Made by a program: the position numbers and the translations under genes
In this document: piece by piece, positions 4,758-14,369 of the stretch
How the letters are laid out: every line of letters starts with the position of its first letter
Numbering within the stretch: position 1 is the first letter of the stretch
Notes under the pieces: model-generated
Seen by the model: the letters and a program-made list of their open reading frames with translations, nothing else
Databases searched by the model: none
What the model was told of the DNA's origin: nothing
Origin: a virus
Lineage: Duplodnaviria; Heunggongvirae; Uroviricota; Caudoviricetes
Length of the DNA stretch: 19,056 bases
IMG/VR virus record: IMGVR_UViG_2713896899_000019
Span: 1 to 19,056 of that record
Strand: one strand, 5' to 3'

Positions 4758-4979
4758 TCATTTCCGGTCCTTAACTTTGCTGTATCGTTCATGGCTCATT
4801 ACTTCCCAGTTCTGGCCGCCGTCTCGGGACAGCAGCCGCCAGCGGCGATTAACCCTCAGACTCAGGTTTCCGGAGCCGTGCATACGACAGGGATGAATTC
4901 GTCTGGCTCTGAACTGGCGGAGAACACGGACCGCCTGCAGGTGCACCCACTCAGGAATTCGTATTGCTGTTAATGTCAC
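4758..4979 (-). CDS. Small arginine-rich protein (73 aa)
   Basis: GTG start preceded by GGAGG. High arginine content (…RVLRQFRARRIHPCRMHG…RVNRRWRLLSRDGG…). Overlaps the 3' end of the upstream 69-aa gene by 29 nt in another frame. Confidence 0.35.
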   Translation of the reverse strand: MTLTAIRIPEWVHLQAVRVLRQFRARRIHPCRMHGSGNLSLRVNRRWRLLSRDGGQNWEVMSHERYSKVKDRK

Positions 4980-5160
4980 CGATTTCCTCCAGATCAGGAG
5001 CGATTACCTGATATCCCGCTTTCTTTGCTATCCATAAGAAGGTATCCATGCTGGCAATCATCTCGTTATTGTGAACTTTACGGGTATTTATTACCTGACC
5101 ATTTTCAATCGTCATAATGATCTGTACTTTTTCGTGTATAAGAGGGGATAAATCAGACAT
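4951..5160 (-). CDS. Hypothetical phage protein (69 aa)
   Basis: Start overlaps the upstream stop as TGATG at 5158-5162. Confidence 0.45.
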   Translation of the reverse strand: MSDLSPLIHEKVQIIMTIENGQVINTRKVHNNEMIASMDTFLWIAKKAGYQVIAPDLEEIGDINSNTNS

Positions 5161-5519
5161 CAGTTAATTCCTCCACTGATATATTTCTCTTTTACGTAGT
5201 CAACAACCTCTTTTAAAAGGCCGTCCACTATCAGTTTCCCTGATTCAGTGAGATATTCCGTGTGTTGATTAATACCGATGGCATTCTGGTATGCGGTACG
5301 GATTGTTGCTTCTCCTTCCGTCCGTCCATATTCAACACGGGTAAGACCCTCAAATCGTAATAACAACTGGTTCATGAACTGTTCAGTTATTTCTATCGTT
5401 GTTATTTCTCCGTCCGGGAGGTCAACGACGAGCAGATTACTACCTGTTTTACGTTGCATCCGCCGGAGTGCCGCTGTTACCATGCGGCGACGATCTTTAT
5501 AAATGGTTGTACATGCCAT
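5160..5519 (-). CDS. Hypothetical phage protein (119 aa)
   Basis: ORF in operon orientation; no family recognised. Confidence 0.55.
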   Translation of the reverse strand: MACTTIYKDRRRMVTAALRRMQRKTGSNLLVVDLPDGEITTIEITEQFMNQLLLRFEGLTRVEYGRTEGEATIRTAYQNAIGINQHTEYLTESGKLIVDGLLKEVVDYVKEKYISGGIN

Positions 5520-5522
5520 TTG

Positions 5523-5621
5523 TTATTTCCCGTATGCTTTTCTGAGAAACAGTATTGCAACTGACCAGTATCCTGCATTAGCCATTAATAATGCGGTTTT
5601 ATAAGCGTTTCTATTTTTCAT
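5523..5621 (-). CDS. Small hydrophobic peptide (32 aa)
   Basis: Hand-translated as MKNRNAYKTALLMANAGYWSVAILFLRKAYGK. Stop lies 3 nt before the start of the 119-aa gene. Weak RBS. Confidence 0.25.
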   Translation of the reverse strand: MKNRNAYKTALLMANAGYWSVAILFLRKAYGK

Positions 5622-5703
5622 GCATCACCATTATTTTCTGGTTGTGGAAATCCACGACCAGAGGCCGTCATGTTTTTATGTGTGATTTTTTACTGAATGT
5701 TCT

Positions 5704-5895
5704 TTATTCGTTGCGTAGTGTTTCTATATACTCGTAAGCCATTTCACAGGTCTTATTCATGGAGCGAATGAGACAGCATAAATAATCGTCTGTCTCTCCT
5801 TGGTCGGGCGAATTCTTAAATATAAATTCAAGCATTGATGTATTCTCTTTTATTTGTGCCGCCACTTCCTCAAGAATATTTAATGGAGTTATCAT
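5704..5895 (-). CDS. Small acidic protein (63 aa)
   Basis: ORF in an AT-rich segment. Acidic composition (…EEVAAQIKE…DQGETDDY…EMAYEYIETLRNE). Start overlaps the upstream stop (5892-5895). Confidence 0.45.
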   Translation of the reverse strand: MITPLNILEEVAAQIKENTSMLEFIFKNSPDQGETDDYLCCLIRSMNKTCEMAYEYIETLRNE

Positions 5896-6116
5896 GTTCT
5901 TTGCTCCTTAAATGCATCGCATGCGCTTCTGGCGTATTGTTGTGCCAGTAAAAAGATATCATCCGAAAGTTCATCACATTCTTCATCACCGGAAGCCGAA
6001 ATGATTAACCCCGCTTCAAGCAGTACGGCAATGTGATGAAAAGCTGTCTCCGGTTCGTTGGTAAGGCCTTTGAACATTTTCATCTTATGCTTCCTCCTGA
6101 TTTTGTTTATAAGCAT
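5892..6116 (-). CDS. Small acidic protein (74 aa; start may be an internal Met)
   Basis: ORF in an AT-rich segment with an acidic stretch (…ASGDEECDELSDDIF…). Overlaps the 3' end of the 138-aa gene. Confidence 0.4.
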   Translation of the reverse strand: MLINKIRRKHKMKMFKGLTNEPETAFHHIAVLLEAGLIISASGDEECDELSDDIFLLAQQYARSACDAFKEQRT

Positions 6117-6501
6117 CAGTCAATAACAACATTGGATCACAGCCAAGAACATTAGCCAGAGGGATAAGCATGCTGATGGTTGGTTCGTACTCTCCGCTTT
6201 CCCACTGGATGATGATTTCTTCATCGAGGTCGAGCAGTCTGGCGAGTTCGGCTGTTGTTAAGCCGCAGTCTTCGCGTTGGGTACGAAGACGGTTGTTGAT
6301 TGCAGAATTTTTGTTCTGTAAAAGCATTGCTGACGATAGCTTTCTGGATATGCTATTTGTCATATCCCATGCCAGTCCTGCGCATGACTCTATATCGCTA
6401 GAGAGCGTAGCATCTGGTGTTGCTTTTGCTATTAGTGTAATGAGGCTGCCGAGGTTTTTCAGTTCTTCGAGACAGTCAAGAGTTGTAGCTTTATTGATCA
6501 T
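6085..6501 (-). CDS. HTH (XRE-type) domain protein with an unrecognised N-terminal domain; first gene of the leftward early operon
   Basis: 138 aa. C-terminal segment GLTTAELARLLDLDEEIIIQWESGEYEPTISMLIPLANVLGCDP is a typical XRE-family helix-turn-helix. It sits directly downstream of the putative OL/PL. Confidence 0.55.
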   Translation of the reverse strand: MINKATTLDCLEELKNLGSLITLIAKATPDATLSSDIESCAGLAWDMTNSISRKLSSAMLLQNKNSAINNRLRTQREDCGLTTAELARLLDLDEEIIIQWESGEYEPTISMLIPLANVLGCDPMLLLTDAYKQNQEEA

Positions 6502-6604
6502 GAGATGATACCTCAGTTACGAACTTTGCTTCATGGTAACTAAGGTATCAAGGTGTGGCAAGTGATTTTTGATACTTTGGTTTCTTTTTGTGTTTTGTGT
6601 CTGG
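6502..6604 (-). promoter_or_regulatory. Putative OL/PL region (leftward early promoter and operator)
   Basis: Candidate minus-strand promoter: -35 TTGCCA (plus 6556-6561), 17-nt spacer, -10 TACCAT (plus 6533-6538). The 12-mer TTGATACTTTGG (6569-6580) is identical to the 12-mer at the PR -35 (7308-7319). GATAC/GTATC pentamers occur at 6507, 6545 and 6571. Confidence 0.35.
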
Positions 6605-7261
6605 TCAGAAAATATCCCACCTGGCATCAACCACAACACCTACTATTTCGCAATCATTGTCCATTTCTATGATTGGATATTGTGGATTAAGGGGCTTTAG
6701 AAACGCCTTTCCCATTTCAGAAATATATTTTTTGAATGTTGCTTCATTGGTAGATTTTTTTCTGGCGATGACGTAACACCCTGAAAAAACTTCTTTATCT
6801 GGGTTGACAAGGATCGACATTCCTTCAGGAAATGTTATTCCTACGGGCGAAGTCATTGAGTCTCCGTGCACTTCCAGCCAGAACCCCCTCTCTCCAGCGT
6901 ATTTTACAGAATGCCTCCAATTATCCTGATCATACATGTTGTAGTCATCACCAGCAGTTGCGAATAATCCTGCCTGAACCCAGTTAATTACAGGGTAAGA
7001 GTGTGCTGTGTCTCTCTGTGGGCAGCTCTTAACATTATTTTCCCAATGCTTATCTTTTTCATCTCCGTTCTGAAGCCACTGCGGTGAACACTGCAGTGCA
7101 GCTGCGACTTTAAAAAGGGTGTCACCGTTGAAACTTTTTGTAAGGCCTTGCTCGGCTTTACTGATTGCAACTCTGGTGACCCCTGCTTTTTTAGCCAACG
7201 CATCTTGCGTTAACCCAGCTTTTTGTCGTGCGTTGATGAGGCGTTCACCTAAAGATTTCAT
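6605..7261 (-). CDS. cI: CI-like prophage repressor (HTH-XRE N-terminal domain, LexA/S24-like C-terminal autopeptidase domain)
   Basis: The ORF track extends to 7336, but the in-frame ATG at 7261-7259 (MKSLGERLINARQKAGLTQDALAKKAGVTRVAISKAEQG…) is preceded by AAGGAGA. The C-terminus has GDSM and a downstream lysine, as in S24 peptidases. It is divergent from the cro-like gene. Confidence 0.85.
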   Translation of the reverse strand: MKSLGERLINARQKAGLTQDALAKKAGVTRVAISKAEQGLTKSFNGDTLFKVAAALQCSPQWLQNGDEKDKHWENNVKSCPQRDTAHSYPVINWVQAGLFATAGDDYNMYDQDNWRHSVKYAGERGFWLEVHGDSMTSPVGITFPEGMSILVNPDKEVFSGCYVIARKKSTNEATFKKYISEMGKAFLKPLNPQYPIIEMDNDCEIVGVVVDARWDIF

Positions 7262-7372
7262 TTTTCTTCTCCTTTCATGGCTGCTGATACTAAAGTAACA
7301 GAATTTCTTGATACTTTGGATTCTCGCGTTTAACATTCTTGGATAACAGAGTATCCGGTGTGAGGCTAAAGA
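7262..7372. promoter_or_regulatory. Immunity-region control region (putative OR with PR rightward and PRM leftward)
   Basis: Rightward promoter: -35 TTGATA (7308-7313), 17-nt spacer, -10 TAACAT (7331-7336), about 37 nt upstream of the cro-like ATG. GATAC-containing motifs at 7286 and 7310, and the palindrome GGATAacagagTATCC at 7341-7356. A leftward -10-like TAGTAT lies upstream of cI. Confidence 0.45.
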
Positions 7373-7624
7373 ATGACCCTTTATGAAATATTAAAAACTC
7401 AATTTAAGACCAATGCCGCTATTGGCCGTAGGTTCCCAAAGAAAGGAAGGCCTCGTGGTAGTCAGGGAGTTGGAAAGTGGAAAACACGGGGCGTTCCGGA
7501 GGATGTTGCCATTCTCTGCCATCTGGATCCGAACATTCCATATACACATCCAAGCTTAGCGCGCACGGGAGAGGTGAAGGGCTTGTATGTCCCAGAATTA
7601 CGTTCAGACAGAGATGCCATCTAG
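7373..7624 (+). CDS. cro: Cro-like small DNA-binding regulator
   Basis: 83-aa ORF divergent from cI, with GAGG 8 nt upstream of the ATG. The cro call rests on position and size; no motif was aligned. Confidence 0.55.
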   Translation: MTLYEILKTQFKTNAAIGRRFPKKGRPRGSQGVGKWKTRGVPEDVAILCHLDPNIPYTHPSLARTGEVKGLYVPELRSDRDAI

Positions 7625-12095: not shown

Positions 12096-12925
12096 TGAAG
12101 CTTGAGGCATCGCTAAAATACTTCAGTCCTCAGGGAATGTATATCGGCGACGATGTGAAAGGAACCTCTCCGGAACGTCTTACAGGCACCGATGTTATGG
12201 CGGCTATTGGTACCACCAGCAATCGTGAGCGGTTTGGCTTGGCGGCCTTCTTCGGGAAGGCCGGTATCAGCAAGACTGATGAGCAGATGGCAGTCCAAGC
12301 GCTGGCGCGTCACGCGATGGAAATTGCACCGAAGAATGTGCGTAAAGCAGCTGGTGGTGAATTTGGCTGGTGTATGCTGGTACTGGCGCAGTTTGCTTTT
12401 GCTGAGTATTCCCGATCGGCAGACACCAGCGTAACATGCCATAGTTGCAGTGGTACCGGACTAACACCCCGTAAGCAGGTCATTCGTAAGGTTTCATACC
12501 CATGGGGTAAAGCACCATATTGGGCCAGTCGCTCCCGTGCTGTTCGACCGTCAGACTGGGAGAAATGGACAGAGGTAACGGAAGTTGTACCAGTCGTTTG
12601 CGATGTATGTAAAGGGAAGGGAGTGATAAGTGCCAGGTGTCGTTGTGGTGGAAAGGGGGAGGTACTCGACCGCAAAGCTACAAGCGAGCGTGGTGCACCA
12701 GTGTTTAAAATCTGCGAACGTTGCAGCGGAAATGGATTTTCCACGGTACCGTCTACCACAGTATATAAAGTTGTACTGAAGCGGATACCCGAGCTACATG
12801 TCAGGACATGGACGCGTAATTGGAAGCCGTTTCTTGATTCTCTGGTTGACATTTGCCACCAGGAAGAGCGTAAGGCCGATATTGCTTTTCAGAATGTGAC
12901 AAGTTTTGGTGATGATGTGAACTAA
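12095..12925 (+). CDS. Putative late-gene antiterminator Q-like protein with four CxxCxGxG zinc-finger repeats
   Basis: 276 aa. Sits directly upstream of the candidate late promoter/terminator and lysis genes. Repeats CHSCSGTG, CDVCKGKG, CRCGGKG and CERCSGNG are DnaJ-type zinc-finger spacing. The Q call is from position plus zinc-binding character, not an alignment. Confidence 0.5.
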   Translation: MKLEASLKYFSPQGMYIGDDVKGTSPERLTGTDVMAAIGTTSNRERFGLAAFFGKAGISKTDEQMAVQALARHAMEIAPKNVRKAAGGEFGWCMLVLAQFAFAEYSRSADTSVTCHSCSGTGLTPRKQVIRKVSYPWGKAPYWASRSRAVRPSDWEKWTEVTEVVPVVCDVCKGKGVISARCRCGGKGEVLDRKATSERGAPVFKICERCSGNGFSTVPSTTVYKVVLKRIPELHVRTWTRNWKPFLDSLVDICHQEERKADIAFQNVTSFGDDVN

Positions 12926-12950
12926 GCTTAGGGTTTTTGCGACATTACAC

Positions 12951-12999
12951 TTGATTTTGTCCGAATCTGTCATGTATGCTTTTAAGCATGTGGAATAAT
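12951..12999 (+). promoter_or_regulatory. Candidate late promoter PR' with promoter-proximal -10-like pause element (qut-like region)
   Basis: -35 TTGATT (12951-12956), 18-nt spacer, -10 TATGCT (12975-12980). A -10-like AATAAT lies at 12994-12999 in the initial transcribed region, as in sigma70-dependent pause sites used by Q proteins. Confidence 0.4.
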
Positions 13000-13018
13000 G
13001 CGTAAATGATTTTGATAG

Positions 13019-13041
13019 AAGCCCCTTTCGGGGCTTTTATC
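13019..13041 (+). terminator. Intrinsic terminator (candidate tR', ending a short 6S-like leader RNA)
   Basis: Stem AAGCCCC / GGGGCTT with loop TTTC (13019-13036), followed by TTTTATCATTT. The T-tract is on the plus strand only. It overlaps the stop codon of the minus-strand 310-aa gene. Confidence 0.6.
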
Positions 13042-13972
13042 ATTTCAGCCCTTTTAAAAAGCGTTCGAAATTATGGAATTCAAGTTCATCCGCTGTCGAT
13101 GAGTATTTTATTTTGTTTGCGATGGGACGCAGATTTTTTTTAGTTAGGAATTTACTGGCTTCATGTTTCAGTTTTTTTAATCGCTTGATTCGTTCTTCGA
13201 TTGAACTGGCAATTTTGGCAACATTAGAAATTTCTGGGCTTGGGGCTGTTTGTAGATCAATACACTGAATTTTTTTTAGATCTTCTTTGAGCGCAACAAA
13301 AAAATCACGAAGATTGTTTTCTGGTAAAAGAACATGACTAAATGATACTTTTCCTATGTAGAATTCACTTATTGCCTCTCCAGACTCGCGCATGTGTTCA
13401 TTCATTGCGAACAGAATTGTTTTGGTATTCTTATCAGTTTCCACTTCAGAAAGGGTTACAAGGCCTGTCTGGCTCTTGGTCAAAAAACGAATTTCTGTAG
13501 CACCAAGTCTTCCGGAGTAATTGGAATTTTTACTATTTTCGATGGTAGAAGATAGATAATCTATTGTGGGTTTGATATTTCGTATCGTTTCAATATTTTT
13601 TTGCCACTCTTCACATTTACTTTTTGCGGTGCTAATAATTTCCCGATTGGTTTCGAGTTGCATAAATTTATTGAAACTAAGAACGTTTTCACCAAATTCC
13701 ACACCAAATTCGTTTTTACCACATTTATTTCCGATGTTGGTTTCAATGCCACTAGATGTTTTTACAATATAACCCATTTGATGTGGTTGGTTGCAACCAG
13801 TTAGACCACAGTGGATTTCTTCTTTAAATTTGTAGTAACCAATTATCTCCTCAAGTTGTTGAACTCCTTTGTCTATAGTGGTGACAAAGTTTGGTCTGGA
13901 TATAATTTCCTCCCAGTTTTCAAGTTTCTCGATGCCGTTTTCAGTTCTGAGAAAAATCATGAATCGCTCCAT
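13040..13972 (-). CDS. AT-rich hypothetical protein (310 aa; likely start at the ATG at 13960), moron oriented against late transcription
   Basis: Long ORF rich in K/N/I/E. Hand counts of two 60-nt lines give about 32-33% G+C against about 50% in flanking phage genes. GGAG lies 8 nt upstream of the internal ATG at 13960. No family recognised. Confidence 0.6.
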   Translation of the reverse strand: MERFMIFLRTENGIEKLENWEEIISRPNFVTTIDKGVQQLEEIIGYYKFKEEIHCGLTGCNQPHQMGYIVKTSSGIETNIGNKCGKNEFGVEFGENVLSFNKFMQLETNREIISTAKSKCEEWQKNIETIRNIKPTIDYLSSTIENSKNSNYSGRLGATEIRFLTKSQTGLVTLSEVETDKNTKTILFAMNEHMRESGEAISEFYIGKVSFSHVLLPENNLRDFFVALKEDLKKIQCIDLQTAPSPEISNVAKIASSIEERIKRLKKLKHEASKFLTKKNLRPIANKIKYSSTADELEFHNFERFLKGLK

Positions 13973-14074
13973 TTGAAAGTGGACCGTTTATTTTATCGGC
14001 ATAAAAATGAGAACACCACAAGTTATTTTATTACCGAATACTTGGTAAAGATGGGTAACTTCGCCACACAGCTT

Positions 14075-14098
14075 AAACCCGCCGCCGTGCGGTTTTTT
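14075..14098 (+). terminator. Possible weak intrinsic terminator
   Basis: Short GC stem CCGC/GCGG (14079-14092) followed by TTTTTT (14093-14098). The stem is only about 4 bp, so this is tentative. Confidence 0.3.
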
Positions 14099-14369
14099 GT
14101 CTGCACAACAGGTAAGAGCATTCTCCCTTATGGGGCTTGGCTTAAATGCACTGAGTGCTCTTATCGTTGTGCTGAATTAAGCGAATACCGGAAGCAGAAC
14201 CGGATCACCAAATGCGTACAGGCGTCATCGCCGCCCAGCAACAGCACAACCCAAACTGAGCCGTAGCCACTGGCTGTCCTGAATTCATCAGTGATAGTTA
14301 CGCTGCGGCCTTCTTTTCCCCATTCCCAATATAAGAACTACGCAATCCGTTACTTGCGGAGGCGTTGCT

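Follow-up and report, generated by a model that had tools for sequence, protein, structure and literature searches.

What does the helix-turn-helix (HTH) protein at the head of a prophage's leftward early operon do, and how are the two small proteins encoded directly behind it related to it? The question is raised by a cluster of three open reading frames (ORFs) on the minus strand, positions 5704-6501, of the IMG/VR virus record IMGVR_UViG_2713896899_000019 (Caudoviricetes), whose 19,056 nucleotides (nt) were analysed as a whole and are called the window here. Read from right to left on that strand, the repressor gene is followed, after a gap of 103 nt, by an ORF of 138 amino acids (aa; 6085-6501, gene 1) and by two small ORFs, P2 and P3, and the ORF list places these three co-directional ORFs exactly where a preliminary description of the DNA had put them. 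The region matches, in pieces and at 94-99% identity, two phages of Escherichia coli, phiP27 and phi467, as well as about 330 complete genomes of E. coli; the cluster opens, on the promoter-proximal side, the leftward early operon of an E. coli prophage of the phiP27/phi467 type, an operon under the control of the repressor. In the Prokaryotic Genome Annotation Pipeline (PGAP) gene 1 is named 'helix-turn-helix domain-containing protein', and P2 and P3 are 63-aa 'hypothetical proteins'. We found no paper or database entry that describes the module and no paper that mentions the RefSeq accessions of its proteins, and the PHROG families of all three are without function. From a comparison set of 80 viral loci, 7 further contigs and 120 homologous proteins we find that the 138-aa protein joins a highly polymorphic N-terminal domain, predicted to be an antiparallel two-helix hairpin, to a conserved HTH core, and that P2 and P3 are free-standing homologues of the hairpins which other alleles of the same protein carry.

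The two small ORFs are real translated genes and not chance ORFs, as their ratios of nonsynonymous to synonymous polymorphism (pN/pS) are 0.20 for P2 and 0.14 for P3, from 11-12 distinct alleles each and with pS reaching 0.61 for P3; this indicates purifying selection. P2 and P3 run in the direction of gene 1, with stop/start overlaps with the preceding gene (ATGA where the P3 start meets the P2 stop), which implies coupled synthesis. They had been described as overlapping acidic proteins of 74 and 63 aa. The overlap and the acidity hold (isoelectric points, pI, of 4.45 and 4.31, with 4.34 for the 138-aa protein), while the length of 74 aa does not: gene 2 is almost certainly of 63 aa, because PGAP starts it at 6083 (MKMFKG...), the upstream ATG of the longer reading is missing in several related loci, and AGGAGG stands 9 nt 5' of the internal ATG.

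The C-terminal part of the 138-aa protein is an XRE-type HTH domain with the five-helix fold, Pfam HTH_3 matching aa 72-123 with an E value of 1.6e-10 (41.3 bits against a cut-off of 23). Across the alleles this core is 88% identical on average and 79% at the minimum. For the approximately 65 residues that precede it, at least nine types can be told apart (A, A', B, C, C', D, E, F and G), with a mean identity of 21% between types. The window carries type A, for which no family was found in Pfam, NCBIfam or PADLOC, so that both halves of the preliminary description, a C-terminal XRE-type HTH and an N-terminal domain of no known family, were upheld. AlphaFold2 (AF2) models the type-A protein with helices at 2-27 and 31-78 and a predicted local distance difference test score (pLDDT) of about 90 over the hairpin, and within the type a pN/pS of 0.05 points to strong purifying selection on the N-domain. 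When the DNA was aligned with phi467 and phiP27, mosaic joints were located at about codon 72 and about codon 128, the exact borders of the HTH core, which is the segment common to the phiP27-type and phi467-type portions of the window. Judged from this alignment, the window is a recombinant in which the immunity region and the N-domain are phiP27-like and the last 10 codons of gene 1, P2 and P3 are phi467-like; P2 and P3 are associated with the 'DAYKQNQEEA' tail of gene 1 rather than with its N-domain. Each N-domain type was accompanied by one repressor type, without exception in the loci examined. Physical linkage suffices to explain this co-variation, as the two genes are separated by about 100-180 bp of DNA without homology. 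Divergence is faster in the hairpin than in the repressor: the C and C' hairpins are 51% identical and their repressors 88%. That the N-domain duplicates a part of the cognate repressor or Cro was also considered, and was rejected with local-alignment z-scores of about 0.

P2 matched the E-type N-domain (2.9e-6) and the B-type N-domain (7e-5) when phmmer was run on a database of 2857 ORFs, and a profile of P2 alleles aligned with cassettes B, C, C' and E and with the C-terminal half of the phiP27 L08 protein at an hhalign probability of 96.4% (E 1.2e-9). These P2-type hairpins, the N-domains of types B, C, C' and E and the L08 C-terminus make up one family, S1, of which a profile search in a set of 5.8 billion proteins returned many free-standing members of 53-78 aa from E. 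coli, E. albertii and Salmonella. AF2 predicts P2 itself to be a two-helix hairpin (helices 11-29 and 34-62, pLDDT 88, predicted template modelling score 0.73), and it is assigned to phrog_4587, for which no function is given. P3 belongs with another cassette: it matched the F-type N-domain of P0107 (phmmer 4.4e-9), aligned convincingly with the more distant F-type proteins P0211 and P0274, and is matched by phrog_27579, a profile of 138 positions, over the profile's first 63 positions. Neither P2 nor P3 had a match in Pfam, NCBIfam or PADLOC. By hhalign, S1, A and F have no detectable relation to one another, and homology of S1 to types A, D, F or G or to an 80-aa ORF of phiP27 was rejected at less than 1%. 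Structure searches with the models of the type-A protein and P2 yielded nothing but XRE domains and helical bundles, generic or de novo, sequence searches of the PDB with the S1 profile and P3 returned only a designed repeat protein, and scans of species-representative genomes gave nothing useful. In an exhaustive profile search the sequence weighting let HTH columns into the profile (221 positions), mostly XRE proteins were returned, and the search was useful solely for a few distant proteins with a hairpin and two HTH domains.

The free hairpins keep close company with the HTH gene. An S1-type ORF was found within 1.1 kb downstream of it in 84 of the 86 loci, the other two being one deletion fusion and one insertion sequence (IS) insertion, and 28 of the 84 loci have a P3-type ORF as well. 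A 66-aa S1 gene is present in each of the four F-type loci, and a free hairpin in C'-type loci too. In several loci the resident cassette has its closest relative in the free hairpin (C' with the short L08 protein, E with P2). P2 and P3 are combined with five repressor types (A, B, C, D and E), and in the searches made, free hairpins were seen solely in the context of the HTH gene. The family is common in E. coli prophages, including those of Shiga toxin (Stx) phages, and some genomes have two copies.

We propose that the hairpins, fused and free, serve in protein-protein association: free hairpins packed against the hairpin of an HTH protein of this family would form mixed helical bundles, by which the activity of that protein and its state of oligomerisation would be altered. 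For a hairpin of two helices on its own, a partner is usually needed to cover the hydrophobic face. Association of the free hairpins with hairpin-bearing HTH proteins, in the manner of SinI with SinR and AimX with AimC, and with either inhibition or an obligate hetero-complex as its outcome, is the possibility to which we tentatively incline, because an XRE protein carries the hairpin, free homologues lie downstream of it, their translation is coupled and the co-occurrence is nearly universal.

The two analogies differ from the present case in instructive ways. In Bacillus subtilis SinI binds SinR and alters its oligomeric state and activity, and SlrR and SlrA form a paralogous pair. In SinR and SinI the HTH is N-terminal, while here the hairpin is N-terminal and the order is reversed, and the hairpins are without detectable sequence homology. 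Here the hairpin comes in many exchangeable cassettes and the window's free copies match those of other alleles; the three genes are apparently co-transcribed and translationally coupled, and a heteromer is what we propose. A SinI-type small protein is homologous to the helical multimerisation domain of its regulator, and such homology was found at the level of the family (P2 with B, C and E at 96.4%, P3 with F at 4.4e-9), the values for the resident type A being 1-3%. Closer in its setting is AimC, also an XRE-type HTH protein of a phage with a small, variable, mainly helical oligomerisation domain. AimX, a small helical protein, replaces the partner's two-helix oligomerisation domain in this XRE repressor and abolishes DNA binding, and it varies together with the AimC oligomerisation domain (bioRxiv 10.1101/2025.11.23.689978). 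AimC is a master repressor with its oligomerisation domain at the C-terminus, AimX is separately controlled by AimR, and the hosts are Gram-positive; AimX is not reported to be homologous to the domain which it binds, whereas P2 and P3 are homologous to cassette families.

Several observations weigh against the association that we propose. Physical binding, its direction and the regulatory targets of the HTH protein are inferred, the AF2 models being of single chains. The types of free hairpin do not track the type of resident cassette, and in the window no homology of the type-A cassette to either P2 or P3 could be detected (hhalign 1-3%, E 0.01-0.05). MAFFT aligned the type-A N-domain with P3 at 32% identity, the phmmer E value being about 1 in the 2857-ORF database and 0.007 in a set of 103 sequences; in view of the hhalign value homology is not claimed. 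Pairing by homology is therefore not expected in the window, unless the common origin is too old to be detected. An antagonist translated together with its target from one mRNA would make little regulatory sense, and an obligate hetero-complex is as likely as inhibition. DNA binding by the 138-aa protein is likewise not assured, and to judge from its residues it may bind no DNA at all, because its core is acidic and its recognition helix begins with D-E-E, in place of S-N-V in the alignment with P22 c2. The net charge of the HTH core is -7 over 60 aa, as compared with +6 for the HTH of the window's cI and +5 for P22 c2, and among 321 XRE-like segments from a representative search only 8 (2.5%) were as acidic (-7 or below), half of them relatives. 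A k-mer search yielded no conserved candidate operator for the HTH outside coding regions. Many alleles carry a second HTH (215-232 aa; P0011, P0049, P0077, P0224, P0229 and others), one of them on at least 1000 contigs and one in strain 12009 of enterohaemorrhagic E. coli (EHEC) O103:H2; of the two tandem domains behind the hairpin, the first is acidic (-4 to -7), and the charge of the second is 0 or +3, thus neutral to basic, in distant relatives and -3 in P0011.

When these genes would be expressed depends on the gap 6502-6604, which had been put forward as the leftward operator and promoter (OL/PL), a proposal that is supported by repeats common to the gap and the cI/cro region and by a promoter-like site. 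Exact TGATACYT occurs in the gap at 6506, 6543 and 6570, a fourth copy sits in the cI/cro intergenic region, and the whole window has six. The operator-like TGATAC repeats span 6506-6520, 6536-6550 and 6569-6582, a 20-nt stretch at 6566-6585 recurs with 90% identity between cI and cro at 7305-7324, and the promoter-like TTGCCA-17-TACCAT lies between the repeats at 6561-6533. The minus strand from cI to the cluster yielded no site resembling an intrinsic terminator, in agreement with the preliminary description. In a transcript reading through from cI, the arms 6550-6536 and 6520-6506 are predicted to fold into a 15-bp hairpin (-21.6 kcal/mol, z -3.6) directly 5' of the gene 1 start, enclosing its GAGG Shine-Dalgarno, whereas an mRNA that begins at the predicted PL would be missing the 5' arm and came out as unstructured in the folding analysis. 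Inverted repeats of the same geometry but of unrelated sequence lie 5' of gene 1 in types C, C', D and E (L001, L088, L010 and L028). The repeats at 6506-6550 may serve as palindromic operators, may prevent the translation of read-through transcripts, or may do both, and repressor bound to the operator could likewise block read-through from the repressor maintenance promoter (PRM). A search of 4800-7500 against Rfam gave no match. As a separate observation, in type B (L011, 2696-2724) the repressor gene is followed by a canonical intrinsic terminator, CCCGCCCACUCUUAAGUGGGC and then U8, and type A of the window has none.

The position of the cluster invites comparison with other phage genes. 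rexAB and 434 hex lie downstream of cI on the same strand (PMC3564112); the cluster does so too, but beyond the operator region. Gene 1 resembles lambda N in being first after OL/PL and differs in having an XRE fold instead of an arginine-rich motif, so the N slot is indeed taken by an HTH protein, as the preliminary description had it; the N-terminal 65 aa hold 6 K+R and 7 D+E and no arginine cluster. Phages of the mEp021 type were considered and set aside as unrelated; they possess an arginine-rich, N-like Gp17. The phi467 allele is annotated as DicA, and phrog_4836 and phage ASU11 carry CII labels. Identity with DicA was rejected, as NCBIfam NF007257 scores 39.7 bits against a cut-off of 101 and over the HTH only, and the HTH is N-terminal in DicA and C-terminal here. 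The CII label is a matter of name, the gene being in the leftward operon and not after cro.

Another way to read the cluster is that its genes have no functional link, the hairpin being a small, fast-evolving helical module spread by recombination and P2, P3 and the HTH protein having separate targets, for example host proteins. The high mosaicism of the region would suit this, as would the free combination of free-hairpin types with resident cassettes and the fusion of the hairpin to a different N-terminal part in phiP27 L08. We nevertheless consider it unlikely, in view of the free hairpin gene that follows the HTH gene in nearly every locus, of the translational coupling, and of the confinement of free hairpins to this context.

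It has also to be asked whether the hairpins act between prophages rather than within one. P2 and P3 could be decoys in inter-prophage competition which poison the assembly of the early HTH proteins of heteroimmune relatives (with B, C, E or F hairpins) on superinfection or co-residence, so blocking their development, and spare the resident type A, and the diversity of the cassettes would then be the escape side, the record of an arms race. Such a system would discriminate self from non-self, in analogy with allelic dimerisation domains on conserved DNA-binding domains. The suggestion comes from the match of the window's free hairpins to non-resident cassettes, and the discrete and highly diverse cassettes on a constant HTH, the divergence of the hairpin ahead of the repressor and the abundance of the family in E. 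coli prophages, with two copies in some genomes, are what it would lead one to expect. In several loci, on the other hand, it is the resident cassette to which the free hairpin is closest, and within a type the hairpin is under strong purifying and not diversifying selection. Expression in the lysogen is doubtful too, because the promoter is repressed and the Shine-Dalgarno is predicted to be buried in the read-through RNA. On balance we hold the decoy role to be improbable.

To the same low degree we credit an immunity-linked antirepressor or co-regulator, that is, hairpins which bind the phage repressor or Cro and not each other. The adjoining repressor gene and the strict co-variation of N-domain cassette and repressor type first suggest it, and small proteins that inactivate cI are documented. 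In the TF-smORF modules of linear plasmid-like phages a transcription factor (TF) activates a divergent small ORF (smORF) whose product inactivates cI, and a role in the competition of co-resident prophages was proposed for them (Silpe et al., Nature 2023, PMC10432266). Those modules resemble the cluster in that a TF and a small-protein gene without known domains lie beside the cI of a temperate phage. The smORF there is divergent and TF-activated, unlike the small genes here, which are co-directional, homologous to the N-domain family of the HTH protein and show no co-variation with the repressor. Moreover, linkage alone accounts for the co-variation of the cassette, the N-domains are unlike the cognate cI or Cro, and P2 and P3 cannot be specific for the resident repressor because they are found with types A-E alike.

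The last proposal, raised by the preliminary description, that P2 and P3 are early DNA mimics or anti-restriction proteins, would agree with their small size, acidity (pI 4.3-4.5) and early position and with the ral- and lar-type functions that lambdoid left operons hold (there is a Lar_restr_allev gene in L089), but it found no support and we regard it as very improbable, as a net charge of -7 over 63 aa in each protein is modest and does not reach the very dense negative surface charge by which proteins of the Ocr and ArdA type imitate the DNA backbone, no family in Pfam, NCBIfam or PADLOC was matched, and the homology of P2 and P3 to the N-domains of other HTH alleles indicates regulation through protein-protein contacts instead.

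The cluster had further been called AT-rich. Its G+C content (5704-6501) is 42.5%, within the 38-43% counted by hand and below the window mean of 48.1%, but it is not distinctive, as it stands at the 13th percentile of 798-nt windows and is similar to the adjoining repressor gene (43.4%). P3 alone is clearly AT-rich (36.5% G+C). The most AT-rich stretch of the window is elsewhere, at 12900-14100 (34-38% G+C), and is far more deviant than the cluster.

Table 1. Positions of the cluster genes, their domains and the adjoining features in the window, with the evidence for each.
Feature	Position	Strand	Evidence
cI-like LexA/S24 repressor, 218 aa from MKSLGERL	6605..7261	-	Pfam Peptidase_S24 1.3e-22, HTH_3 1.3e-14; PGAP: LexA family protein
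OL/PL-like control region	6502..6604	-	TGATAC repeats common to cI/cro intergenic region; RNA folds
N-terminal two-helix hairpin of 138-aa protein, cassette type A, aa 2-60	6322..6498	-	AF2; type and identity comparison
Linker, XRE-type HTH core and 10-aa tail of 138-aa protein	6085..6321	-	Pfam match aa 72-123 = 6133-6288
P2, 63-aa free-standing two-helix hairpin, S1 family	5892..6083	-	phmmer, hhalign, AF2, pN/pS
P3, 63-aa free-standing homologue of cassette type F	5704..5895	-	phmmer, phrog_27579, pN/pS
Conserved 32-aa ORF MKNRNAYKTALLMANAGYWSVAILFLRKAYGK, possible fourth cluster gene	5523..5621	-	homologues at equivalent position

The features around the cluster are listed in Table 1. The repressor ORF can be extended upstream to 7336, and to judge from its position, the divergent gene at 7373-7624 is cro-like. 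The 32-aa ORF downstream of P3 stops 3 nt short of the next gene's start, and homologues of 31-37 aa, of low identity and ending in LRKAYG[KR], stand at the equivalent place in nearly all related loci, the counterparts in L085 and L087 being called as genes. It had no match in Pfam, and its membership in the module is uncertain. Between P3 and this ORF, at about 5639-5662 on the minus strand, there is an imperfect 24-nt palindrome, CTGGTCGTGGATTTCCACAACCAG, and loci with the alternative L08 module have the related GGGGATTGTTACAACC at the corresponding place. In phiP27 (L002, 3730-3978, minus strand) an unannotated ORF of 80-82 aa, MKNCDAYHICLIGE..., overlaps the L10 stop with its start by ATGA; it is kept in many A-type loci in the place of P2 and has no detectable homology to the hairpin families. 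Further along the operon, a 73-aa ORF (4758-4979, minus strand) has a ParE_like toxin domain (PF24732, E 9.9e-20) and is named ParE family toxin-like by PGAP in relatives, and a 69-aa gene (4951-5160, minus strand) lies upstream and overlaps it. From this arrangement the pair could be a toxin-antitoxin system inside the early left operon, with the 69-aa protein as putative antitoxin. A PaaA2-type antitoxin, likewise a helical protein of 63 aa, was considered and rejected on its sequence; the ParE-like gene has this upstream partner ORF of its own.

Thus, an uncharacterised but widespread module, consisting of a polymorphic hairpin cassette on an HTH protein and free-standing paralogues of that cassette, holds the first position of the early leftward operon in widespread E. 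coli prophages, as a variant of the theme of a regulator with a small antagonist. Stx1- and Stx2-converting phages and prophages of EHEC O103:H2 are among its carriers, and for none of its members does the annotation go beyond 'HTH domain protein' or 'hypothetical protein'. Should the HTH proteins prove to be bound by the free hairpins, the module would be a Gram-negative lambdoid counterpart of control of the SinI/SinR and AimX/AimC type, with the added feature of a cassette-like polymorphic interaction domain tied to the immunity type. It would then bear on whether the switches of co-resident prophages are independent or interfere with each other, and hence on the induction of Stx phages.

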